From assembly GCA_035510735.1 (NCBI GenBank), contig DATKGN010000006.1, positions 65,429 through 129,428 on the forward strand: a DNA stretch of 64,000 nt, given 5' to 3'. Below the pieces are notes generated by a model. It was not told the origin of the DNA, searched no databases, and was given only the letters and a program-made list of their open reading frames with translations. This DNA is from Patescibacteria group bacterium. Its GTDB lineage: Bacteria; Patescibacteriota; Microgenomatia; UBA10105; UBA927. Below are positions 920-41,552 of this stretch, one piece after another. Every line of letters starts with the position of its first letter. The stretch's first letter is position 1. The position numbers and the translations under genes are program-made.

Positions 920-2248
920 TTAAACAGTAAGACTCTTTTGAAGTATCTCCATTACCTTCTTTTTATCGCCTTTCCCTTTTAGGGTTTTAAGCACGTTGCC
1001 GAAGAGAAACATTTTGACTTGTTCCTTGCCCGCTTTGAAATCAGCGACGGCTTTGGGATTGGCGGCAAGGACGTCTGAAATTGCCTTTTGGATTTCCTCA
1101 TCCGGTATAGAAACAACTTTTCTAGACTGAATTAACTCCTCCGCAATTTTATTTGGATTAGCGGTTTCAATATCTATTGGACGATTAAATAACCAATCTC
1201 CAAATGTTTTTGGATTTATCGTTGGGTCTTTCTTAACGGTAAGATTGTAAGCAGTTTCTACGAAAACAACTGAACTTGGGGATACCGATGATAAACTTGC
1301 ATATGAAGTTGGAAAACCCATAGTTACAAACTCCTGGAATTTATCATCTGGTAGTTTAGGGAGTTGTTTCTTTAAACCATCAATATATCCTTGTTCCCAC
1401 ACGATAGGAGGTATATCAGGGTCCGGGAAATAGCGGTAATCCTCGGCGTTTTCCTTAGATCGTTGTGGGAACGAAACGCCTTTATCCTCGTTCCATCCGC
1501 GTGTCTCTTGAGGCGGCTTTTCGCCTTTTTCCAGGAAGGTAATGTGACGCTCGGTTTCGTACTCAATTGCTTTTTTGACGAATGCAAAAGAGTTGATGTT
1601 TTTCACTTCCACTTTGTAGGCCGGAAGGTGCGTGTCACCGACAGGACGGACCGAAATATTGGGCTCCAGGCGCATCGTGCCTTTTTCCATATCTGCATCG
1701 GAAACGTCGAGATACCGGATAATCTGGTAGAGTTTCTTTAAGAATTCCCGTGCCTGCTCAGCTGAATGGATATCAGCCTCCGTTACAATTTCCATAAGCG
1801 GTACGCCGCAGCGGTTAAAGTCGATGAGTGATACTTTTTTGCCGTTGACGGTTTTATGAAGCAACTTACCCGTGTCCTCTTCCAGATGCACGCGGTGGAT
1901 GCGTACGTCGCCCGAGGGAAGGTGGACGCGGCCATTCACACAGAACGGCTCATCGTATTGTGAAATTTGATAGCCCTTTGCCAAGTCGGGATAGAAATAG
2001 TTTTTCCTGTCGAATTTGCTGTGAAGCGGGATTTCGCACCCCAAAGCAAGCCCGAGCATGATCGTCCACTCGACTGCTTTTTTATTCGGCACAGGGAGTC
2101 CACCCGGCATCCCGAGACAGACCGGACACGTATAGATGTTGGGCTTGGGCGCGTGGAACGGGTCGTTTTTGCATCCGCAGAACATTTTGCTTTTGGTCTT
2201 AAGCTCTACATGTATCTCCATCCCGACAACCGGCTCCCACTCACTCAT
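920..2248 (-). CDS. gatB: Asp/Glu-tRNA amidotransferase subunit B
   Basis: [26 protein letters not shown]... is a typical GatB N-terminus. Start moved to the ATG at 2246-2248, which has an AAGGAGG SD and overlaps the gatA stop by 8 nt. Confidence 0.9.
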
Positions 2249-3668
2249 GCGCCTCCTTCGTCCACGGATTGAAGTCCGTTTCCTGTTCATAGAGATATGC
2301 AGCCCGAAGTACCGTTTCCTCCTGCCAGTGATTTGCCATGATGGAAAGTCCTAAGGGAAGTCCCGTTTTTTTATCCCAATAGCATGGGACACTTATGCCC
2401 GTGAGTCCGGATAATGAACTGGGCTCGTTGAGTAAGTCAGTAAGCTCTCCAAAAAGAGGATTCCCTTCGCTCTCACCGAATTTGAGTGCCGGACCGGGTG
2501 TTGCGGTAGAAATGAGCAGATCATATTTTGAAAACAGCTGGGCAAAGTTTTTTATGTAGAGATTGCGTACTTTTTCCGCCAAAACGTAGTATTTATCCGC
2601 ATAACCCTTCGACAACGTAAAGGTGCCAAGCATAATCCTCCGTTTGGCTTCCGCACCGAACGTGCTTCTATTATGACCGTAACGGATGCCGTCATAGCGG
2701 GCTAAGTTGCTACTAACTTCGCTCCGTTGGACGACGGTATAGACGCCGACTGCATAATCGGGATTGAGTATGGTGTTGTCTTCTAATTGATCTGAAAGGG
2801 CAACCTTCTCTACTGTTGCACCATTCTTTTCAAACAGTTTTCCCGCTTCTTCAACGGATTTCTCGGTTTGTGTACCTTTCAACTGCGGGTGGTCCATGTA
2901 GCAGATGCCGATCTTCAGTCCCTTCACTCCTTTTTTGAGATTTGAGGCGTAATCGGGCACCGGCAATTCTCCGGTCGTTGCGTCATACGGATCTTTCCCT
3001 GCGATGACAGATAGAAGTATTGCCGCATCCTCGACCGTTTTAGTCATGGGGCCCGGTGAATCCAGGGAGCTTCCCATTGCCACAACCCCCGTGCGGGGCA
3101 CGCGGCCATAGGTGGGCTTCAACCCCACCGTCCCGCACCATGCGGATGGGATGCGGATAGAGCCTGCGGTTTCGCTTCCCAATGCCGTGATGCACATGTT
3201 AGCGGCAACAGCTGCTGCGCTTCCACCGGATGAACCTCCGGGCACGTGAGCTAAATTATTCGGATTTTTTGTCGGGCCGAAATCAGAGGTTTCGGTACTG
3301 CTGCCATGCGCCCAAGCATCCATGTTGGTTTTGCCAACGACCACGCCACCTGCCTTCTTAAGCCGTGACGTGACGGTCGATTCGTACGGCGGGTTGAAGC
3401 CTCTGAGAACATTCGAGGATGCCGTGGTTTCCAACCCAACCGTCAGAAAATTATCTTTGACCGCAACCGGCACACCCGCAAGCGGCGTATCCAATAGTTT
3501 CTCAGCTTGACTAACCGCTTCAGTATTGAGAGCGAGGTACGCATTAAGCTCTTTATTTTTGCCGGCAATCGCCTCCGACACATCAGCATAAAGCTCCTTA
3601 TGGGAAATCTCTTTGGATTTGAGTTTTTTAACGGCAGACGCAAGTGTAAGCGTGTTCAATTTTTTCAT
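2241..3668 (-). CDS. gatA: Glu-tRNA(Gln) amidotransferase subunit A (amidase signature family)
   Basis: 475 aa with a Gly/Ser-rich amidase signature ([13 protein letters not shown]). Ordered gatC-gatA-gatB. Confidence 0.9.
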
Positions 3669-3676
3669 AGGGAGTC

Positions 3677-3982
3677 TTAGTCATCCTGTTCGATGAGCTG
3701 GTCTACAACAAAATAGCCGTTATGGGTATTGGGCGCATTGGCGAGGGCTTGCTCTTGGGTAAACATGCGCTTCTTATCAACCTCATCCTCGCGAAGCACG
3801 TTTGATAGCCCCGTCATATGGACAGCAGTAACGACGGAAACGTCGAGTTTGTTCAGTTCCTCGACAACGCCGATTGTTTTGGTAAACCCATCGGCGAGGC
3901 TCTTCTTCTCCCCGTCCGTGACGGGAATGTTCGCGAGGGACGCGATATGCGTCACATCGTCTGTTGTGAATTTCGTTGCCAT
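3677..3982 (-). CDS. gatC: Asp/Glu-tRNA amidotransferase subunit C
   Basis: 101 aa, MATKFTTDDVTHIASLANI..., immediately upstream of gatA. Confidence 0.85.
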   Translation of the reverse strand: MATKFTTDDVTHIASLANIPVTDGEKKSLADGFTKTIGVVEELNKLDVSVVTAVHMTGLSNVLREDEVDKKRMFTQEQALANAPNTHNGYFVVDQLIEQDD

Positions 3983-4005
3983 TAGAACATATTATATACC
4001 CAACG

Positions 4006-5352
4006 TTACATGTCGACGAGATACCGCGACAGTTCCCAGTCCGTCACCCAACGCCTAAAGCTGTTCCATTCCTCGCCTTTGGCTTCCAGATACCGCTTCC
4101 ACGTATATTCACCGAATGTTGAGCGGACAATTGTGCCTTTCTCTATTTCGGTAAGTGCCTCGCCCAGACTCGCAGGGAGTTTGGTGATGTAGTGTTTGGC
4201 TAGCTTCGCATCGTCAAACTCAAACAGGTTTTCCTCAACCGGCGCGGGCGCTTTCATTTTCCGTTTTATGCCCTCAAGCCCGGCCTTAAGCAAAACTGCG
4301 AAGGTGAGATATGGGCTTGCCGACGGATCAGGACAGCGTATCTCAAAGCGTGTCGCTTTGTTTTCCGTTCCTTTGGAAATCTTGGGGACACGGATGAGAG
4401 CTGACCTGTTAATTCTCGCCCATGATACGTACGCCGGCGCTTCAAAGCCCGGAGTTAACCGTTTGTACGAATTGACAATCGGCGCAAATACTCCGGCCAA
4501 TTCTTTCGCGTACTTTAATTGTCCCGCTAAAAACTGATATGCCACCTGCGACAATCCGTAAGCATCCTTGGGGTCGTACATGGCGTTTTTAGACCCAATC
4601 CACAGACTCTGGTGGGTATGCATGCCGCTGCCGTTTATGCCGTAAAACGGTTTGGGCATGAATGTCGCGTGCCACCCGTGCTGGTAGGCTATAAAGCGGG
4701 CTGCCATTTTGAGAGTCACCGTGTTGTCCGCGGTTTTCAGGGCCTCACCGTAGCGGATATCAATCTCATGCTGGTTATCGGCAACCTCATGGGTACTGGT
4801 TTCGGAAACTATCCCCATGCTGTCTAAACCTTCCATAATCTTCCTCTTTATGGTGTATGCCTCATCCATGATAAGGGTGAAGTAATACCCATTTCCGCGC
4901 GATTCGCGTCGGATAGTGCCGTCCTCATTTTTCGGAAGCAGGAAAAATTCACACTCAGGGCCGGTGTAGTAGTCGAGACCCATTTTCTTGGCTTCGGCAA
5001 GAACCCTCTTTAATATATTTCTCGGATCACCCTCAAACGGCTCGTGGTTCGGCGTATAGACGTCACAGATAAGCCTCGCGACTCTACCGGTGGCTACTTC
5101 ATTGCGCCATGGAAGAAGTGCATAAGTCGAGACGTCCGGTACCAAATACATATCCGACTCGTGGATACGTGCAAAGCCCTCGATTGAAGATCCGTCTATC
5201 CAGACGCCGCTTGTGAGAGCCCCCTCCAGGTTATAAATAGGGATGGTCGAACTTTTGACGTTGCCCATGAAGTCGTTAAACTGTAGATCCACAAATGCTA
5301 CTTTGTCTTTTTTTGCTTTCGCAAGTAATTCTTTCACTTCATCTTTTGCCAT
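4006..5352 (-). CDS. glnA: Glutamine synthetase type I
   Basis: 448 aa GS-I-like sequence with a GGGGG SD upstream of the ATG at 5350-5352. Confidence 0.9.
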   Translation of the reverse strand: MAKDEVKELLAKAKKDKVAFVDLQFNDFMGNVKSSTIPIYNLEGALTSGVWIDGSSIEGFARIHESDMYLVPDVSTYALLPWRNEVATGRVARLICDVYTPNHEPFEGDPRNILKRVLAEAKKMGLDYYTGPECEFFLLPKNEDGTIRRESRGNGYYFTLIMDEAYTIKRKIMEGLDSMGIVSETSTHEVADNQHEIDIRYGEALKTADNTVTLKMAARFIAYQHGWHATFMPKPFYGINGSGMHTHQSLWIGSKNAMYDPKDAYGLSQVAYQFLAGQLKYAKELAGVFAPIVNSYKRLTPGFEAPAYVSWARINRSALIRVPKISKGTENKATRFEIRCPDPSASPYLTFAVLLKAGLEGIKRKMKAPAPVEENLFEFDDAKLAKHYITKLPASLGEALTEIEKGTIVRSTFGEYTWKRYLEAKGEEWNSFRRWVTDWELSRYLVDM

Positions 5353-5445
5353 AGAAACCCCCTTTTAAATGTTTTTATATGACTCCAGCGTTGCTGGATT
5401 GTGGTTAGTTCATTCGTCTCGATGACTCGACTTACGAACTAACCA

Positions 5446-5469
5446 CTAAAAATCCCGCCACTTGGCGGG
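5446..5469 (-). terminator. Intrinsic terminator-like hairpin in the glnA 5' leader (minus-strand sense: cccgcc-aagt-ggcggg then AUUUUUA)
   Basis: 6-bp GC stem, tetraloop and a U-tract, read directly from the sequence. Its 5' arm overlaps the 3' arm of the preceding hexaloop hairpin. Confidence 0.5.
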
Positions 5470-5508
5470 ACATCGTTGTCTCCCTATATGTAACCCTCGT
5501 CGTTGAGG
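5467..5508 (-). promoter_or_regulatory. Dual small hairpins with hexaloops AACGAC and AACGAU (A at loop position 1, G at 4), resembling an ANTAR antiterminator target
   Basis: Minus strand reads cctc-AACGAC-gagg, a 10-nt linker, then gggagac-AACGAU-gtccc, which overlaps the terminator. This matches the ANTAR RNA target architecture described in established knowledge. Confidence 0.5.
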
Positions 5509-5519
5509 ATATTATATCT

Positions 5520-5548
5520 ATCCTAAAAAAAATAACTCATAATGTCAA
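5520..5548 (-). promoter_or_regulatory. Candidate sigma70-like promoter for the glnA leader (TTGACA-N17-TAGGAT)
   Basis: Consensus -35 hexamer and a weak -10. A perfect TATAAT at 5511-5516 has poor spacing to it. Confidence 0.3.
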
Positions 5549-5565
5549 CACTCGATTTTATGGGA

Positions 5566-6279
5566 TTAATGGGTAACGCTCAATTGTTCAGCGATGATGA
5601 TGGCGTCGGCCATCTCTTTGAGCGACTTCCGCAGGTCCATGCTTTTTTTCTGCAAAACTTTATATGCTGCTTCCTCGGAGAGTCCTTTCCGTTTCATGAG
5701 AATTCCTTTGGCCTTTTCAACGAGTTTCCGCAGTTCCAACGACTCTTTAAGAGATAGTGTCTCTTCAATAAGAAGCGCGTTTTCAACAGCTCCGCCGACC
5801 AGTTTTCCTACGGCTGTTAATAGATTTATCTCCATCTGAGAATGGGCATGGGGCGCTTTATGCTGGATGTTGATGACGCCGACAACTCCGCGTTTCGTTA
5901 TAATAGGCACTGATAAAAATGCCTCATAGGTATCCTCAGGTAAATTTCTGAAATATTTAAATCGCGAGTCCTTCGAGGCGCCCTCTGCAATTGCAACCGG
6001 CTGCTTTTGACGGGCAACCCATCCCGTTATCCCCTCGCCCATTTTCATCGTAATATTTTGAAGTAAGGCCGCATGAGGATTCTTGGAGGCACGGAGAATG
6101 AGTTCTGATTTTTTTGGATCAAGAACGTAAATTAAGACGGAATCCGCATGGGATACCTCAATGACGACGGAAACGATCTCCCTGAGGACGTCCTTAAGTT
6201 CCAGACTATGGACCGTTTGCGCGACACGATATAAGAGGCTTACTTCTTTCTGCAATTTCGCAACTTCGTTATCGGTCAT
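5566..6279 (-). CDS. GAF-ANTAR RNA-binding antitermination regulator
   Basis: N-terminal GAF-like region, then a C-terminal ANTAR signature ...EKAKGILMKRKGLSEEAAYKVLQKKSMDLRKSLKEMADAIIIAE. Confidence 0.85.
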   Translation of the reverse strand: MTDNEVAKLQKEVSLLYRVAQTVHSLELKDVLREIVSVVIEVSHADSVLIYVLDPKKSELILRASKNPHAALLQNITMKMGEGITGWVARQKQPVAIAEGASKDSRFKYFRNLPEDTYEAFLSVPIITKRGVVGVINIQHKAPHAHSQMEINLLTAVGKLVGGAVENALLIEETLSLKESLELRKLVEKAKGILMKRKGLSEEAAYKVLQKKSMDLRKSLKEMADAIIIAEQLSVTH

Positions 6280-6308
6280 ATGGGGTATTATACGCCACTC
6301 TTGCGTAA

Positions 6309-6629
6309 ATGCGTGATATTTCGTACGCTAATTGTATGAGACAGTATCAAAAATTTTATGAACAGATGATTGCGGACAATCAGGAGCTGTTTGATACATT
6401 CAAGGGAATACATGATGCATACGTCCTTAACCCCGAGCTCAACCAGGCAAAATTCAACGATATCGGACGCGAAGTGGTTGATGTAATCCGCGAATACGAG
6501 CGAAAACTCTGCGGCAACATGAACTCGGGCGCATACGGCGCATTCTCACAGAACCTGTCGCAGAAATTCTGGGATGAGATACGGAAAGTCTACAAAAAAA
6601 TCGACTTCGTGGGTGCTACTGTTGGATAA
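6309..6629 (+). CDS. Hypothetical protein (106 aa; start may be the downstream Met at 6336)
   Basis: Non-repetitive ORF, convergent with the methyltransferase gene. Only 29 nt separate it from the divergent regulator gene. Confidence 0.4.
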   Translation: MRDISYANCMRQYQKFYEQMIADNQELFDTFKGIHDAYVLNPELNQAKFNDIGREVVDVIREYERKLCGNMNSGAYGAFSQNLSQKFWDEIRKVYKKIDFVGATVG

Positions 6630-6631
6630 CG

Positions 6632-7255
6632 TTATTTCTTCGCAAATATATACAGATTCGTATCCGACATATTGTACTTATCGTCACAGTGCTCTGACTG
6701 TATGGTGATTGACGAAAATCCGACCTCTTTAAGTTTCTCTGTGATCCGTTTCTTGGTAAAGAAATTGAAAAATGTTTTCTTACCCGGCGCAAACGGCTCG
6801 TCTACATAATGATCAGGCTTTCCCTGCTGAGCGAATATCGCAACCCAGCCTCCGGATTTCAGTATTCGGTAAAAATCCGACAATACTCCCGAAACCTTTG
6901 TGTCAGATATATGAATAAGAGAATACGAGGAGAGGATCCCATTAAATTTATTAGGCGGGAACTGGAGCCTGCGAATATCCATATAAACAAATGTGCAGTT
7001 TGAATAATGATTCTTTGCAATGGCAAGCATATTCCTTGATAAATCAACGCCGGTCACCCGGAATCCCTTTTTGGCCATATGATATGCGTTTTGTCCTGCA
7101 CCACAGCCGGCGTCCAGTATTTCGGCTTTATACGGAAGTTTTTTTAATAGCAAATTAACGTGCGACTTATCGGTGGAATCTTCCCCATACTTCGCCACAT
7201 ACGCATCGGCGATTGTGTCATACACCTCAATTATTGAATCGGTTGGATCAATCAT
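6632..7255 (-). CDS. Class I SAM-dependent methyltransferase
   Basis: Motif I ILDAGCGAGQNA. 207 aa. Confidence 0.8.
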   Translation of the reverse strand: MIDPTDSIIEVYDTIADAYVAKYGEDSTDKSHVNLLLKKLPYKAEILDAGCGAGQNAYHMAKKGFRVTGVDLSRNMLAIAKNHYSNCTFVYMDIRRLQFPPNKFNGILSSYSLIHISDTKVSGVLSDFYRILKSGGWVAIFAQQGKPDHYVDEPFAPGKKTFFNFFTKKRITEKLKEVGFSSITIQSEHCDDKYNMSDTNLYIFAKK

Positions 7256-7264
7256 AGGTGAGCG

Positions 7265-8017
7265 TCAGATCTTGTGAAGGATTACTTCGCGGGCGCGGGT
7301 TGCAAGGGTGTCATCAAGAGATCTCAGTGTTACATGTTTGTCATATTTCATCTCCAACGCCTTCCCAATAAGCCAGTCGGCGATCATCGGGTTTTTAGGC
7401 AGGAGCGGTCCGTGAAAATACGATCCCACCGAATTTTTATACACCGCGCCTTCGTACCCATCTTCGCCATTATTACCGTAACCCTTGATCACTTTCGCAA
7501 GCGGCTTCATTTTAGGTCCGAGCGTCGTCCGCCCCCCGTGATTTTCAAATCCGACAATCGTCTTCCCTTCAAACCCCGGTAAGTTGATAATTTTGGCGGC
7601 GACATTGCCGATACACCGTTTTGCTTGATCGCCGGGGTGGATGGTCACAAGATCAAAAATACCAGCGCCGGGGATATCCTTTCCCTGATACGGGCGGTAA
7701 TAATGACCGACAAACTGGTAGGCAGCACAGACAAATAGCGCAGGGATCCAGCTCTCTACCATCTTGGCAACGACAGGGCCTTTATTGCCTAAGAAATCTT
7801 CGGATGCGAGTTTCTGCTGCCGGTCCTGAGCACCTCCCATGAACAAAAGGTCACAGGATTTGAGTTTACCGATCTTTGTCTCGAGTGTGACCGGTACAAT
7901 GGTCACATCGATACTCCGCCACTGGCACCGGCGCTCAAGGACAATAATATTCCCCCGGTCTCCGTACGTACTCATGAGGTCAGGATAGAGCCACGCGATG
8001 TTTAATTTATAATCCAT
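7265..8017 (-). CDS. gatD: Lipid II isoglutaminyl synthase glutaminase subunit (CobQ-type GATase)
   Basis: MDYKLNIAWLYPDLMSTYGDRGN... is a typical GatD N-terminus, with the catalytic Cys context FVCAAYQ. Paired with murT. Start trimmed to the internal Met. Confidence 0.8.
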   Translation of the reverse strand: MDYKLNIAWLYPDLMSTYGDRGNIIVLERRCQWRSIDVTIVPVTLETKIGKLKSCDLLFMGGAQDRQQKLASEDFLGNKGPVVAKMVESWIPALFVCAAYQFVGHYYRPYQGKDIPGAGIFDLVTIHPGDQAKRCIGNVAAKIINLPGFEGKTIVGFENHGGRTTLGPKMKPLAKVIKGYGNNGEDGYEGAVYKNSVGSYFHGPLLPKNPMIADWLIGKALEMKYDKHVTLRSLDDTLATRAREVILHKI

Positions 8018-8030
8018 AATTTTATTCTTG

Positions 8031-8123
8031 TCATTGCGAGTCGAGTCTTCGAGACGCGGCAATCTCTTCAATTAATTCAGATTGCTTCGCCCCGTCAGCT
8101 GACGGGGTCTCGCAATGACATTA
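8031..8123. repeat. 11-bp perfect long-range inverted repeat (gtcattgcgag / ctcgcaatgac) enclosing an 18-bp palindrome (ccccgtcagctgacgggg) and the motif tcgagtcttcgagacg
   Basis: Read directly from the sequence, in the murT-gatD intergenic region. Confidence 0.5.
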
Positions 8124-8128
8124 TTGTA

Positions 8129-9424
8129 TTACAGTATTTTTCTCCCCCCTACAATTTTCCTCACTTCGAGCATTGCCGAATAGGTCGATAAAACATATAA
8201 GATGCCGCCCTGCGGCGTAAGTTGCAGGCCCTGTTTTATAGCGTGCCGCAGGTCCGGTTCCACATGCGGTTTCCTCATTTCGCCGGCTGAATATTGTACA
8301 CGGATCGCCATATCATATACGCGGTCGCCCGTTACAACAACTTCCACATTTTTCGGAACCGTTTCAAAATCCACGTCCCAAATCCAACTCACGTCGCGTC
8401 CGTCAGGTATCCGGTCGTTAAGGGCGAAAAGTATTGCCGCGGGCTTACTTTCAAGCACCGTCCGCAAGGACGCATTAAACCCGGCAGGATTTTTCGAAAG
8501 AAATACTTTGATTTTTTTGTCGGCGACGGCAAATTCTTCCTGACGCCCGAATGCGGGCGCAAATCCGGTTAACGCAGTCGTAATGTGATCGTCGGTGATA
8601 TGACACTCGCGGGCAGTAAGGACGGCAGCGAGCGTATTGTAGCGGTTGTAGAGACCCGGGAGCGGTGACTGCCATGACGAGAGATCCAATTTTGGCCTCG
8701 TCTCACCGCAGACGCTGCAAAACCATTCTCCGATATGGGAAAAATAATTTACTTTGTAGGAAAGCCGTGCGCCGCAAAAGAGACAAAATGTCGAATCCGT
8801 CGCATGCTCCATTTTGGGGGCAGCAAGCGATGGGTCGTCAAGACCGAAATACTTCACCTTCGCCTTCACATCTTTTGCAAGAGAACTAACCAGCGGATCA
8901 TCGGCGTTCAGAATAAGCGTGGTTCTCTCATCAATAGTGCGTAGAGCTTTTTGCCATTTTTCCGCAATCACGTCGACCTCGCCATAACGGTCCAACTGAT
9001 CACGGAAAAGATTAAGGATGACGATGAATTTTGGCGCAATGTAGCGCATTACAATGGGGAGCGAGTTTTCATCGATCTCAAAAACCCCGAAGTCTCCGTT
9101 CACACGTCCACCACGGGTCGTATGTTCAATACAGGCCGATACGACACCATTGAGGAGATTAGCTCCACTTTTATTATGGACGACGGATTTTCCCTCTTTC
9201 TCTAAAATCGTTTTTATCATGAGGGACGTTGTCGTCTTGCCGTTTGTGCCGGCAACGAGAATTATCCCGTCTGTAATATGCGTTCCGAATTCACCAAGAA
9301 TGTGAGGCGACATCATGAGGGCAATCTCTCCGGGCCAGGTCGCACCGGCACCCAGATGAAAGGTTTTACTTGTCCACGAAACGAATTTACCTGCCGCTAC
9401 AGTCAGCCGATGCTTGAAGCTCAT
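8129..9424 (-). CDS. murT: Lipid II isoglutaminyl synthase, Mur-ligase-like subunit
   Basis: Mur ligase P-loop AGTNGKTTT plus a Cys4 ribbon CLFCG...CSVCG. 431 aa, adjacent to gatD. Confidence 0.85.
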   Translation of the reverse strand: MSFKHRLTVAAGKFVSWTSKTFHLGAGATWPGEIALMMSPHILGEFGTHITDGIILVAGTNGKTTTSLMIKTILEKEGKSVVHNKSGANLLNGVVSACIEHTTRGGRVNGDFGVFEIDENSLPIVMRYIAPKFIVILNLFRDQLDRYGEVDVIAEKWQKALRTIDERTTLILNADDPLVSSLAKDVKAKVKYFGLDDPSLAAPKMEHATDSTFCLFCGARLSYKVNYFSHIGEWFCSVCGETRPKLDLSSWQSPLPGLYNRYNTLAAVLTARECHITDDHITTALTGFAPAFGRQEEFAVADKKIKVFLSKNPAGFNASLRTVLESKPAAILFALNDRIPDGRDVSWIWDVDFETVPKNVEVVVTGDRVYDMAIRVQYSAGEMRKPHVEPDLRHAIKQGLQLTPQGGILYVLSTYSAMLEVRKIVGGRKIL

Positions 9425-38616: not shown

Positions 38617-41552
38617 GTCAGTTTCGTCGCAAGCGTCTCTTTTTGTATATACGCCAGGAGCTCTTTTGTAAAGTCTTTATATTCACTCGGAAGCTCAATA
38701 ATCACGCGTTCATCTATTTTACACCCTTTTTCTTTCCGGAGCATTTGAATTTGACGGACCACGTCGCGTACCATTCCTATTTGTACGTCTTGATTTCCAA
38801 CATCTGACTGTCCACCAACGGAATAATAGTCCGTACTAACCTCATTTTTTCCTTCATAAATTAATTCATAAACATTTGCTTCAGATAATACAATTTTCTT
38901 TACAGCTTCAGTTAGCCCTCGAGGTCCCCGGTAATTGAGTTTTTTAAATGGAATTCTTACTTTCACGTTTGCTTGCTTACGAAATGCAAGTAAAAGTGAA
39001 GCAACCGTTCGACCGTCAGTCATCGCTTTCTCAAGTTCAGCATCGACTTTACCGTCTTCCGGCCAATCCGCAAGATGAACTGATTCCTCTCCTGTCAAAT
39101 TCATATACATTTCATCAGCAATAAATGGTGTAAAGGGAGCCAACAATTTAGTTAATGTAACCAACACTTCAAACATCGTTGCAAAACAAGCGTTCTTATC
39201 GACTGAATTATCGACGGTCGGGCCTACACGGTCACGAGATCTTCGAACGTACCATTGGGATAAATTGGTCACAAAAGTTTCAATTGCATTCGCTGCTGTC
39301 GCGGCATCATAGACTTCAAGAGATTTAGTCGTAAGCTTGATAAGCGCATGTAATTCACTCAATATCCAGATATCAAGGACATTTGATGATTTCGAGGTAA
39401 CGGCGCCTGGACTCCAGGAGTCAACGGTCGCATAGGTCACAAAGAAGTTATACACATTCCACAAAAGCAAATGAAACTTCCGCCTTGTCTCGTCGGCGAG
39501 TTTATACCCGAACAGTATATTTTGCTCCGGATTGTGCTTTACGAACATCCAACGCATTACGTCGGCTCCGATCTTATCCGCTCCTTCATTAAACTCGATC
39601 GCATTCCCCCATGATTTATGCATGGGTCTGCCGTCTTCGCCGAGCATCGAAGCATAACCTAATACCGTCTTAAAACAGGTTTTCTGCTCAAGGACTGTCG
39701 ACATTGCTATCATGGAATAGAACCAATTTTTAAATTGGCCGGGGAATGATTCCGTAATAAAATCTGCGGGGTACCACTGTCTCCAATATGCTTTATCCGA
39801 TGTGTAACTTAATTTGTTTGTCATGGGATCGATGAGCGTTGAAAACCCGACGATACCTGCATCCAACCAAACGTTTCCGACGTCATTAAGACGTGAAACC
39901 GTCTCCCCGCACTTTTCACAGCGGATTTTTACTTCATCAATAAAGGGTTTATGTGGGGAATGTCCGTCAAACTGATTCCAACCTGCAACTGCCTTTTCTT
40001 TTAACTCTTCCTTGCTGCCGATAACGGTAAAGTTCCCACATTTTTTACATTCATAGATCGGAAGCGCCAGCCCCCAATACCGATTCGGCTTACTGATAAG
40101 CCAGTCATGCATATTGGAGAGCCAATCCAATTCACGGTCAAGTCCGAAAGCAGGCTTCCAGGTGATTTGCCTGGCAGTATCCATCATCTGCTCTCGAAGC
40201 GTCTTGCCGCTCGACTTTTCCTTTGTGTCCATCGCGATGTACCATTCATCCGCAACTTTCCAGACAAGCTCGGTTTTACACCGCCAACAGGCCGGATACC
40301 GATGCATATAATTTTCTACTTTGAAAAGACATAAGTTACCCTTGGCATTTCGTTCGGTTAAATAATCGATAATAATCTCCGGATGCTTTTTTGCATTTTT
40401 CCCGGCCAGAAAACCGAGCGATGGTAAATAGTCAGCATTATCGGCAATAACGGGTATCATGGGGAGACCATACTTTTTCCCTAACTGAAAATCCTCCGAC
40501 CCCGCACTCACGGCCGTATGCACGAGTCCCGTCCCTTCAGTTGTCGTCACAGGAAGAAGAAGCGGGTCAGTCGCAACAACTGTATGGAATGTTTTAGGAT
40601 TATCTTTAGCTACTTTTGCAACTACTTCAAGATCGTCAAAAGGCCCGGTATAGAATAATCCAACTAATTCTTTTCCTTTCACGGTTTTTACAATTTGCTT
40701 ATATTCTTTACCGAACACTGCCTCAACCCGTTCCTTCACCATCCAGAATTTGTTGCCGGTCATCCCCTCAACCAGACTGTAATCAAGCGTTTTATCGACA
40801 GCGATTGCGATATTCGCCGGTATTGTCCATGGAGTCGTTGTCCAAACCAATAAGTATTCATTTTTTCTTTCGACGATGGGAAATGCAAGATAGACGGATT
40901 TATGCGAGACTTCCTTATAATCCTCAGTCAGCATTTCATGCTGGGAAATTGCCGTTTCGCATCGCGGACACCACGGCACACTTTCTCTTCCTTTATAAAT
41001 CCATCCTTTTTCAAAACAGGTTTTGAGAAAATGCCAAATCATGTAATTGTTCTCATCACTCATGGTAAAGTACGAATGATCCCAGTCGACGATGTATCCC
41101 AGGCGCTTGCTTTGTTCGGATTGAATGGAACTAAATTTCCGGACGCGCTCTTTACAGAGCTCGACAAATTTAGCGACGGATGCTTTTGGGTCACCCGAAA
41201 CGAGATTTTCTATGTCTTTCTTATTCCGTATTTGTAATTCCTTCTCGACCTCTACTTCAACCCACAACCCCTGGCAGTCAAATCCGTTTTGGAACCGCTC
41301 TTTTCGCCCGCGAAGTGTCCAAAACCGCTGCCATAAATCCTTATATGTCCGTCCCCACGCATGGTGAACGCCCATGGGGTTATTTGCCGTTATGGGGCCG
41401 TCAAGGAATGAAAACCGTTTATCTGAGCCATCGTTTCTATGAAGATACTTGGCAACGATTCCTTTTTCATACCACTCAGACAATAACCGTTTTTCCATTT
41501 CAGGAAAATTGTTATTCGGCGTTACCGGTTTAAATGTATGTTTCTTTGCCAT
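38583..41552 (-). CDS. ileS: Isoleucyl-tRNA synthetase
   Basis: 989 aa with a PMGVHHAWGR (HIGH-type) motif, a KMSKS-type region, and zinc-binding Cys clusters. Confidence 0.9.
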   Translation of the reverse strand: MAKKHTFKPVTPNNNFPEMEKRLLSEWYEKGIVAKYLHRNDGSDKRFSFLDGPITANNPMGVHHAWGRTYKDLWQRFWTLRGRKERFQNGFDCQGLWVEVEVEKELQIRNKKDIENLVSGDPKASVAKFVELCKERVRKFSSIQSEQSKRLGYIVDWDHSYFTMSDENNYMIWHFLKTCFEKGWIYKGRESVPWCPRCETAISQHEMLTEDYKEVSHKSVYLAFPIVERKNEYLLVWTTTPWTIPANIAIAVDKTLDYSLVEGMTGNKFWMVKERVEAVFGKEYKQIVKTVKGKELVGLFYTGPFDDLEVVAKVAKDNPKTFHTVVATDPLLLPVTTTEGTGLVHTAVSAGSEDFQLGKKYGLPMIPVIADNADYLPSLGFLAGKNAKKHPEIIIDYLTERNAKGNLCLFKVENYMHRYPACWRCKTELVWKVADEWYIAMDTKEKSSGKTLREQMMDTARQITWKPAFGLDRELDWLSNMHDWLISKPNRYWGLALPIYECKKCGNFTVIGSKEELKEKAVAGWNQFDGHSPHKPFIDEVKIRCEKCGETVSRLNDVGNVWLDAGIVGFSTLIDPMTNKLSYTSDKAYWRQWYPADFITESFPGQFKNWFYSMIAMSTVLEQKTCFKTVLGYASMLGEDGRPMHKSWGNAIEFNEGADKIGADVMRWMFVKHNPEQNILFGYKLADETRRKFHLLLWNVYNFFVTYATVDSWSPGAVTSKSSNVLDIWILSELHALIKLTTKSLEVYDAATAANAIETFVTNLSQWYVRRSRDRVGPTVDNSVDKNACFATMFEVLVTLTKLLAPFTPFIADEMYMNLTGEESVHLADWPEDGKVDAELEKAMTDGRTVASLLLAFRKQANVKVRIPFKKLNYRGPRGLTEAVKKIVLSEANVYELIYEGKNEVSTDYYSVGGQSDVGNQDVQIGMVRDVVRQIQMLRKEKGCKIDERVIIELPSEYKDFTKELLAYIQKETLATKLTWGNSLQLSTG

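Follow-up and report, generated by a model that had tools for sequence, protein, structure and literature searches.

The question raised by this locus is whether a small GAF-ANTAR protein controls the glutamine synthetase gene next to it by acting on RNA, and, if it does, to which signal it responds. The window, as the whole analyzed stretch of DNA is called here, comprised 64 kb of a Patescibacteria contig (DATKGN010000006.1). On its minus strand, the gene for a GAF-ANTAR one-component regulator of 237 amino acids (aa) (5566–6279; assigned by Pfam ANTAR and GAF_2 matches) was followed by the regulated gene glnA (4006–5352; assigned by Pfam and NCBIfam), which encodes a type I glutamine synthetase. 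The two genes were separated by an intergenic leader of 213 nucleotides (nt) (5353–5565, minus strand). A preliminary description of the window had read this leader as an ANTAR-type attenuator, in which the second of two hexaloop hairpins overlaps an intrinsic terminator. The dual-hexaloop-plus-terminator model itself comes from EutV (PMC3369931) and has been structurally refined (PMC8934654).

All of the leader elements named in the preliminary description were present on the minus strand where it had placed them, and all of the computational tests that it had proposed and that were run here favored its interpretation. The comparison covered the 64-kb window and 168 regulator-encoding loci (L001–L168): 80 from species-representative genomes, 80 from metagenomes, and eight from close relatives (72–97% protein identity). 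Altogether, the leader is probably a protein-dependent transcription attenuator through which the regulator is predicted to bring about antitermination of glnA.

Architecture of the glnA Leader

A sigma-70-like promoter on the minus strand (TTGACA, 5548–5543; 17-nt spacer; TAGGAT, 5525–5520) matched the consensus at 10 of 12 positions and, on that basis, gave a predicted transcription start near 5513. Both hexamers were invariant in alignment A4, which contained the window, L161, L162, and L165, and both were also readable in L166, L167, and L003. TTGACA was found with a different −10 hexamer in L001, L082, L083, and L036, while L168 carried TTGACA and TAAGAT.

Downstream of the promoter, the minus-strand transcript contained two ANTAR hairpins, P1 and P2. 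P1 (CCUC-AACGAC-GAGG, 5508–5495) was extendable to six base pairs (bp) (AUCCUC-AACGAC-GAGGGU, 5510–5493). P2 had the core GAC-AACGAU-GUC (5480–5469; 5467–5482 overall); it was present as previously described, with the correction that its stem had only three contiguous pairs, followed by an A·C mismatch and then a G-C pair. Both hexaloops had an A at position 1 (A1) and a G at position 4 (G4), the loop bases recognized by ANTAR domains (PMC3369931; PMC8934654). Depending on stem extension, the P1–P2 linker was approximately 10–14 nt long in the window; linkers ranged from 3 to 25 nt in relatives and range from 5 to 12 nt in the eut leaders of Enterococcus faecalis (PMC3369931).

A terminator scan placed an intrinsic terminator (GUCCCGCC-AAGU-GGCGGGAU) at 5471–5452 and its U-tract at 5451–5447, both on the minus strand. 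The three-nucleotide overlap between P2 and the terminator that had been proposed was found at G5471, U5470, and C5469: the 3′ arm of P2 formed the first three bases of the terminator, plus CC if P2 is extended. This overlap was conserved in relatives, and the terminator sequence was identical in L161, L162, and L165.

Two further minus-strand hairpins appeared in the minimum-energy fold beyond the U-tract: a long hairpin at 5446–5401, with a stem of 12–13 bp and not the 11 bp given earlier, and a small hairpin (CCAGC-AAC-GCUGG) at about 5398–5384. Both exist, as had been described, and both are lineage-specific and lie outside the conserved switch. Together (5384–5446) they were confined to the window and its 97%-identical relatives. 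In L165 (77% protein identity), the long hairpin was a different one and the small hairpin covaried, with CCAGC/GCUGG replaced by CCGAU-AAA-GUCGG. Neither was present in L166–L168 or L002–L005, in which the U-tract almost abuts the Shine-Dalgarno sequence. The long hairpin was also considered as a repeated element and rejected, as it occurred in a single copy in the window. The glnA Shine-Dalgarno sequence (AAAGGGGG, 5365–5358, minus strand, by sequence reading) lay approximately 85 nt downstream of the U-tract, and the glnA start ATG was at 5352 on the minus strand.

Conservation of the Dual Hairpin in Related Loci

Relatives of the regulator were found in Chloroflexota, Planctomycetota, Nitrospirota, and Acidobacteriota. 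The glnA gene was directly downstream of the regulator gene in most Patescibacteria-type loci and in one Anaerolineales locus, and not in the Acidobacteriota. One intergenic layout recurred: a P1 stem of variable sequence, a conserved P2 (AGAC-AnnGAn-GUCU), a terminator beginning in the 3′ arm of P2, and a U-tract.

Two covariance models were used, R1 for P1 plus P2 and R2 for the same two hairpins leaving out the window and its 97% relatives. R1 gave 43 matches in 42 of the 168 loci, all on the strand of the regulator and spread over several phyla. In total, 32 matches were located immediately before glnA, four before amtB, four before small open reading frames (ORFs), and three at contig ends. 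Matches outside the training set included L013 and L053 (before glnA), L080 (before amtB-glnB), and L161–L168. The preliminary description had proposed looking for the motif upstream of other nitrogen genes, and in related genomes it was found before amtB. When both strands of the 64 kb (128 kb) were searched with R2, the leader was the sole significant match (29.3 bits, E about 2e-4), and the next score was 9.7. The comparison across the 168 loci makes a chance origin of the motif very unlikely.

No further ANTAR site was found in the window by a regular expression, by a hairpin-plus-terminator scanner, or by R1 and R2 with filters off. A second scanner match at 39945 was discarded for its poor U-tract.

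Covariation was assessed on a model-derived alignment of 34 sequences, with a MAFFT alignment that was not structure-fitted as a cross-check. Stem cells were paired in 94.9% of cases; column shuffles gave 78.1%, with none of 500 reaching the observed value, and pairing dropped to 29–48% when the partners were slid by 1–3 columns. The MAFFT alignment gave the same picture (95.4% paired). The covariation score was 0.44, compared with 0.13 after shuffling and 0.04–0.11 with slid partners. Four of the five P1 pairs changed on both sides in a compensatory manner (e.g., GC 9, UA 6, AU 4, CG 3), and the P2 stem GAC/GUC was invariant across the 34 sequences. Of 36 P1 loops, 35 kept A1 and all kept G4; of 35 P2 loops, 31 kept A1 and all kept G4. 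The preliminary description had made its reading depend on conservation of the hexaloop hairpins in related genomes, and both were conserved, with P1 covarying.

A strict terminator starting in the 3′ arm of P2 was found for 25 of the 34 family matches, compared with 107 of 3000 random anchors (3.6%). Inspected by eye, most of the other nine matches had a hairpin with one mismatch and a U-tract.

These results bear on the explanation that the hairpin and U-tract simply terminate the regulator gene and that the small hairpins are incidental. The regulator stop codon was not followed by any separate terminator, and transcripts running on from that gene would be stopped at this hairpin too. A conserved promoter-like site nevertheless separates the regulator stop from P1, the P1 stem covaries around nearly invariant A1 and G4, and the motif with its terminator also precedes glnA or amtB away from the regulator (L013, L053, and L080). 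A plain terminator is therefore extremely unlikely.

The invariant positions of the motif also bear on a protein-independent element, either a riboswitch (for example, for glutamine) or a purely kinetic attenuator. Glutamine-sensing RNAs are generally known to precede nitrogen genes in other phyla. In the present family, the invariant bases of two minimal hairpins were only those that ANTAR domains contact, and the motif co-occurred with an ANTAR gene, which leaves a protein-independent element exceedingly improbable. With Rfam 15 at gathering thresholds, the whole window yielded four tRNAs only. At permissive E-values, the region 5300–5620 gave chance-level Rfam matches only, including no ANTAR family and no glutamine riboswitch; the best sub-threshold match was to the unrelated Pseudomon-groES family (22 bits compared with a gathering score of 50).

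Other arrangements were seen in individual loci. In two Planctomycetota/Brocadiaceae loci, L009 (about 3840–3960) and L012 (about 925–1040), two hairpins and a strong terminator were located 3′ of the regulator gene. Their variant loops, CUUGAU and CAUGAA, have a C at position 1 and were overlooked by R1 and R2. In L010 (3640–3682), L089 (2402–2445), and L092 (237–283), the motif and terminator stood before a small ORF with the regulator gene behind it, an order that suggests autoregulation in some lineages. The Candidatus Geothermocultor locus L080 contained three motif matches at 5285–8060, one preceding a sigma-factor-like ORF, one preceding amtB-glnB, and one following glnB. In this locus, the regulator homolog aligned to the GAF part of the query only.

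Leader Folding and Predicted Mechanism

Folding of the whole leader was far more favorable than that of shuffled sequence (z = −5.95), and none of 200 shuffles equaled it. Folded in isolation, the terminator had an energy of −14.9 kcal/mol, P1 −6.3 kcal/mol, and P2 −1.4 to −2.4 kcal/mol. The energy comparison proposed in the preliminary description thus set −14.9 kcal/mol for the terminator against about −2 kcal/mol for P2 as the antiterminator. If P2 is forced, only a 5-bp CCGCC/GGCGG hairpin remains, 3 nt away from the U-tract; as intrinsic terminators are known to behave, a hairpin so placed should terminate poorly. When the predicted transcript was folded as an ensemble without protein, 98% pairing was obtained for the terminator arms, and P1 was fully formed. 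Because the terminator dominates the protein-free fold, the predicted default is termination, and glnA would need a positive factor. The Shine-Dalgarno sequence had a mean unpaired probability of 0.73 in the same ensemble and is thus not sequestered.

In the proposed mechanism, transcription would start near 5513 from the promoter in the gap that separates glnA from the regulator gene. In the absence of the protein, the leader would fold into the terminator (5471–5452), and RNA polymerase would halt near 5447, before glnA. When the GAF-ANTAR protein is active, an ANTAR dimer would bind the P1 and P2 hexaloops. P2, held closed, would then sequester G5471–C5469, the base of the terminator stem beside the U-tract. 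Termination would fail and glnA would be transcribed, possibly together with gatCAB. We infer that the regulator binds the P1–P2 RNA and that this binding prevents termination.

The regulator might instead bind the dual hairpin and act on translation or mRNA stability, as in actinobacterial ANTAR targets. ANTAR RNAs that overlap start sites in Actinobacteria repress translation (PMC8164766), and two extra hairpins do lie between the terminator and the Shine-Dalgarno sequence of glnA. Those hairpins are not conserved, whereas P2 overlapped a GC-rich hairpin and U-tract in the window and likewise in 25 or more of 34 relatives, and the mostly unpaired Shine-Dalgarno sequence is well past the U-tract. 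An action on translation or stability is accordingly very unlikely. Altogether, the translational, plain-terminator, and riboswitch explanations are contradicted by the conserved terminator overlap, the free Shine-Dalgarno sequence, the presence of the motif at sites not adjoining the regulator, and the absence of any Rfam match.

The Regulator and Its ANTAR Domain

As previously described, the protein encoded next to the leader contained a GAF and an ANTAR domain: Pfam GAF_2 at aa 26–166 (3.1e-17) and Pfam ANTAR (PF03861) at aa 177–228 (8.6e-20). The ANTAR match scored 70.7 bits against a cut-off of 27.3 and covered positions 3–54 of the 54-position profile, and thus the C-terminus passed the hidden Markov model check on which the ANTAR assignment had been made to hang. 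A protein from a Patescibacteria metagenome-assembled genome at NCBI was 100% identical to the regulator. Among the closest named relatives, many were Candidatus Gottesmanbacteria proteins and a few were labeled Anaerolineales or Terriglobales, and more than 100 clusters were 64–79% identical to the regulator. An exhaustive representative search for homologs returned 782 matches at 1e-30, a number that is no measure of the size of the GAF-ANTAR family because giant multi-GAF proteins dominated the search.

The AlphaFold model of the regulator, with a mean predicted local distance difference test (pLDDT) score of 82.9, showed a GAF fold. Helices were modeled at 148–198 (a long helix), 202–216, and 220–236, with pLDDT of 83–95. 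A helical linker and a small C-terminal helical bundle were thus present, as in ANTAR proteins.

The residues of EutV that contact the hexaloop are R142, K143, K147, K149, E160, Y164, R168, M172, N173, R175, and R177 (PMC8934654). Through an ungapped alignment to 6wsh, these residues mapped to R184, K185, K189, K191, E202, Y206, Q210, M214, D215, R217, and S219 of the regulator. Eight of the 11 contacts were identical: R184, K185, K189, K191, E202, Y206, M214, and R217. In EutV, the Glu and Tyr hold the flipped-out G4, and mutation of the Met plug abolishes binding (PMC8934654). The conserved contacts therefore include the three residues (E, Y, and M) with the largest mutational effects in EutV.

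The GAF Domain and the Candidate Signal

The solved structures closest in sequence to the GAF domain of the regulator were those of the GAF domains of PtsP (EI-Ntr), namely 3ci6 (2.3e-19) and 3trc (1e-12). The top fold match was again 3ci6, with a template modeling (TM) score of 0.84–0.86, a root-mean-square deviation of 2.3–2.8 Å, and 27% identity. NCBIfam models matched the N-terminal 180 residues as PtsP (4.8e-20) and NifA (3.6e-13), both far below the whole-protein cut-offs. In the family alignment A1, the GAF domain was strongly conserved (mean column identity 71%), with an invariant GEGITGWVA stretch and invariant surroundings of RFK-FR-LPED; this conservation fits a ligand pocket.

The NifA GAF domain is acted on by 2-oxoglutarate. 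Glutamine binds to EI-Ntr's GAF domain and blocks autophosphorylation (PMC4848567). Because the closest relatives are PtsP (EI-Ntr) and NifA GAF domains, a nitrogen-status ligand is plausible for the regulator by analogy. By the same analogy, and more weakly, low glutamine or high 2-oxoglutarate might favor the RNA-binding state; since the ligands of GAF domains are of many kinds, this ligand state can only be suggested. The identity of the ligand is the weakest step of the proposed mechanism. It is tentatively possible, if doubtful, that the GAF-ANTAR protein senses glutamine or 2-oxoglutarate directly and switches on glnA and amtB by RNA antitermination, which would make it the core nitrogen regulator of the genome-reduced Patescibacteria.

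The sensor domain also bears on a variant of the attenuator in which the regulator is controlled by a partner protein, as AmiR is by AmiC, or only by its own abundance, or in which another ANTAR protein is the effector. Known ANTAR systems include partner-controlled ones (PMC7496416), a conserved 97-aa divergent protein adjoins the regulator in all close relatives, the ligand of the GAF domain is a candidate only, and the view of this genome was that of 64 kb. The pocket-like conservation of the GAF domain, the absence of the small ORF from most motif-bearing loci, and the joint occurrence of regulator and motif in 42 loci of several phyla argue against this variant, which is unlikely.

Several points weigh against regulator-dependent antitermination as the reading of this leader. 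The 29-bit score of the window is among the lower scores of the family (range, 23.5–44 bits), and E-values from covariance models are rough. The training sequences were chosen by eye for hairpins, which favors the pairing statistics. P2 of the window is weaker than the family consensus, with 3 bp and then the A·C mismatch, and the P2 loop of the 97%-identical relatives (GAUGAU) starts with a G and departs from the A1 rule. Even with P2 forced, the 5-bp hairpin 3 nt off the U-tract can still form. The glnA promoter is a consensus match only, and the ligand assignment leans on 27% identity to a PtsP domain of a class whose ligands are diverse. Finally, the Acidobacteriota homologs (L014–L079, 42–50% identity) had neither the motif nor nitrogen genes within 4 kb; their neighbors encoded a symporter, a peptidase, a hydrolase, an ABC permease, and an aldehyde dehydrogenase. 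Adjacency of regulator and RNA is therefore not universal, and the targets in these loci are not informed by the present data.

Gene Neighborhood

The regulated gene was well supported as a glutamine synthetase by Pfam (Gln-synt_C 8e-118, Gln-synt_N 7e-29) and by NCBIfam (TIGR00653, 475 bits compared with a cut-off of 429). It was followed on the minus strand by gatC-gatA-gatB (920–3982; Pfam GatC, Amidase, and GatB_N), which encode a glutamine-dependent tRNA amidotransferase. The glnA stop codon and gatC were only 23 nt apart, and a terminator scan between the two genes detected no terminator; transcription may therefore read through from glnA into gatCAB. In L167 and L168, glnA was likewise followed by gatC, and L165 had an asparaginase gene inserted between the two.

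On the other side of the regulator, the minus strand contained a methyltransferase gene (6632–7255), a CobQ-like glutamine amidotransferase gene (7265–8071), and murT (8129–9424). A glutamine theme runs through 920–9424 on this strand, as glutamine is made or used by MurT with its GatD-like amidotransferase, by glutamine synthetase, and by GatCAB. Neither amtB nor a PII gene was encoded within the 64-kb window.

The regulator ATG (6279) was preceded by a TATAAT ending 7 nt upstream and by no Shine-Dalgarno sequence (6280–6292, minus strand), as was also seen in L161, L165, and L168. The gatC ATG (3982) was similar (3983–3995, minus strand), in contrast to glnA with its strong AAAGGGGG. Judging from these start regions, the regulator and gatC mRNAs are probably leaderless.

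The divergent ORF at 6336–6626 on the plus strand, 56 nt from the regulator start, encoded a helical protein of 97 aa that had no Pfam match even at E = 10. It was 74–99% identical and in the same position in L161–L168 and L006, and 45% identical in L086. The regulator may have a partner in this protein, or the two genes may simply be syntenic.

Comparison With Known Systems

ANTAR antitermination is an established mechanism that was connected with nitrogen genes, glutamine synthetase among them, as early as 2012; with the mechanism and the nitrogen link already known, the locus does not change thinking in the field. Clean, compact, and under strong conservation, it offers a case in which to test what signal the large GAF-ANTAR class perceives, and it bears on the control of nitrogen assimilation in uncultured, regulator-poor Patescibacteria. 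A regulator of 237 aa and an RNA target of about 45 nt make in vitro study feasible without cultivation, and the similarity to PtsP and NifA GAF domains provides specific candidate ligands. The GAF-ANTAR class has no characterized member (PMC3369931, PMC7496416), and a literature search for GAF-ANTAR proteins and for ANTAR in Patescibacteria returned no characterized example. Should the regulator sense glutamine or 2-oxoglutarate directly, it would give the GAF-ANTAR proteins their first assigned signal.

The reference ANTAR system is EutV with the eutP leader of E. faecalis. It shares with the window two A1/G4 hexaloop stem-loops, the closing pairs AC...GU found in P2 of the window, and a 3′ arm of P2 that is common to the intrinsic terminator. 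The regulator retains from EutV the Tyr that stacks on G4 as well as the Glu, the Met plug, and the basic residues. EutV differs in being a response regulator that is phosphorylated via EutW and serves ethanolamine utilization, whereas the N-terminus here is a GAF domain and the target is glnA.

NasR of Klebsiella oxytoca, with its nasF leader, is, like the regulator, a one-component ANTAR antiterminator whose sensor is fused by a helical linker (PMC7496416), and it places a nitrogen-assimilation operon under a two-hexaloop leader and terminator. The ANTAR domain of NasR aligned to that of the regulator at 4.2e-9. The NIT domain of NasR binds nitrate or nitrite, in contrast to the PtsP/NifA-type GAF domain and the glnA target found here.

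GnfR of the GnfK/GnfR system of Geobacter sulfurreducens is also an ANTAR antiterminator that relieves premature termination in the leaders of nitrogen genes. Its site CAGGCAANGGCGCC forms a GGC-AANGGC-GCC hexaloop hairpin much like P1 of the present family. GnfR differs as a two-component response regulator with nif targets and sigma-54 control.

On the sensor side, the PtsP (EI-Ntr) and NifA GAF domains are the closest by sequence and fold; at approximately 27% identity, the ligand is suggested by analogy. Their output is a phosphotransferase or a sigma-54 activator, where the regulator has an RNA-binding ANTAR domain.

Most predicted ANTAR targets were reported to precede nitrogen genes, synthases for glutamate, glutamine, and arginine being named (Ramesh et al., 2012, PMC3369931). 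In Table S2 of that study, glutamine synthetase was mentioned 25 times, and in Firmicutes a dual hairpin plus terminator preceded glutamine synthetase genes, some of them beside an ANTAR regulator or gat genes; examples included Alkaliphilus, Desulforudis, Carboxydothermus, and C. lentocellum. The regulators listed there belong to another phylum; the table describes them not as GAF proteins but as ANTAR-containing response regulators or ANTAR regulatory proteins, and part 1 of 3 of the table contained no Patescibacteria genome. An experimental precedent for control of glutamine synthetase by the ANTAR family is NitR of Clostridium saccharobutylicum, which, when nitrogen is limiting, induces the genes for glutamine synthetase and glutamate synthase, according to a review of glutamine synthetase regulation (PMC6316151, citing Stutz et al., 2007). 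The preliminary description had presented a switch on glutamine synthetase with a GAF sensor as a departure from the textbook arrangement: the GAF sensor stood, and placement before glnA is, from Table S2 and the NitR account, not unusual. Overall, the locus adds a GAF sensor and the Patescibacteria lineage to known ANTAR control of nitrogen genes.

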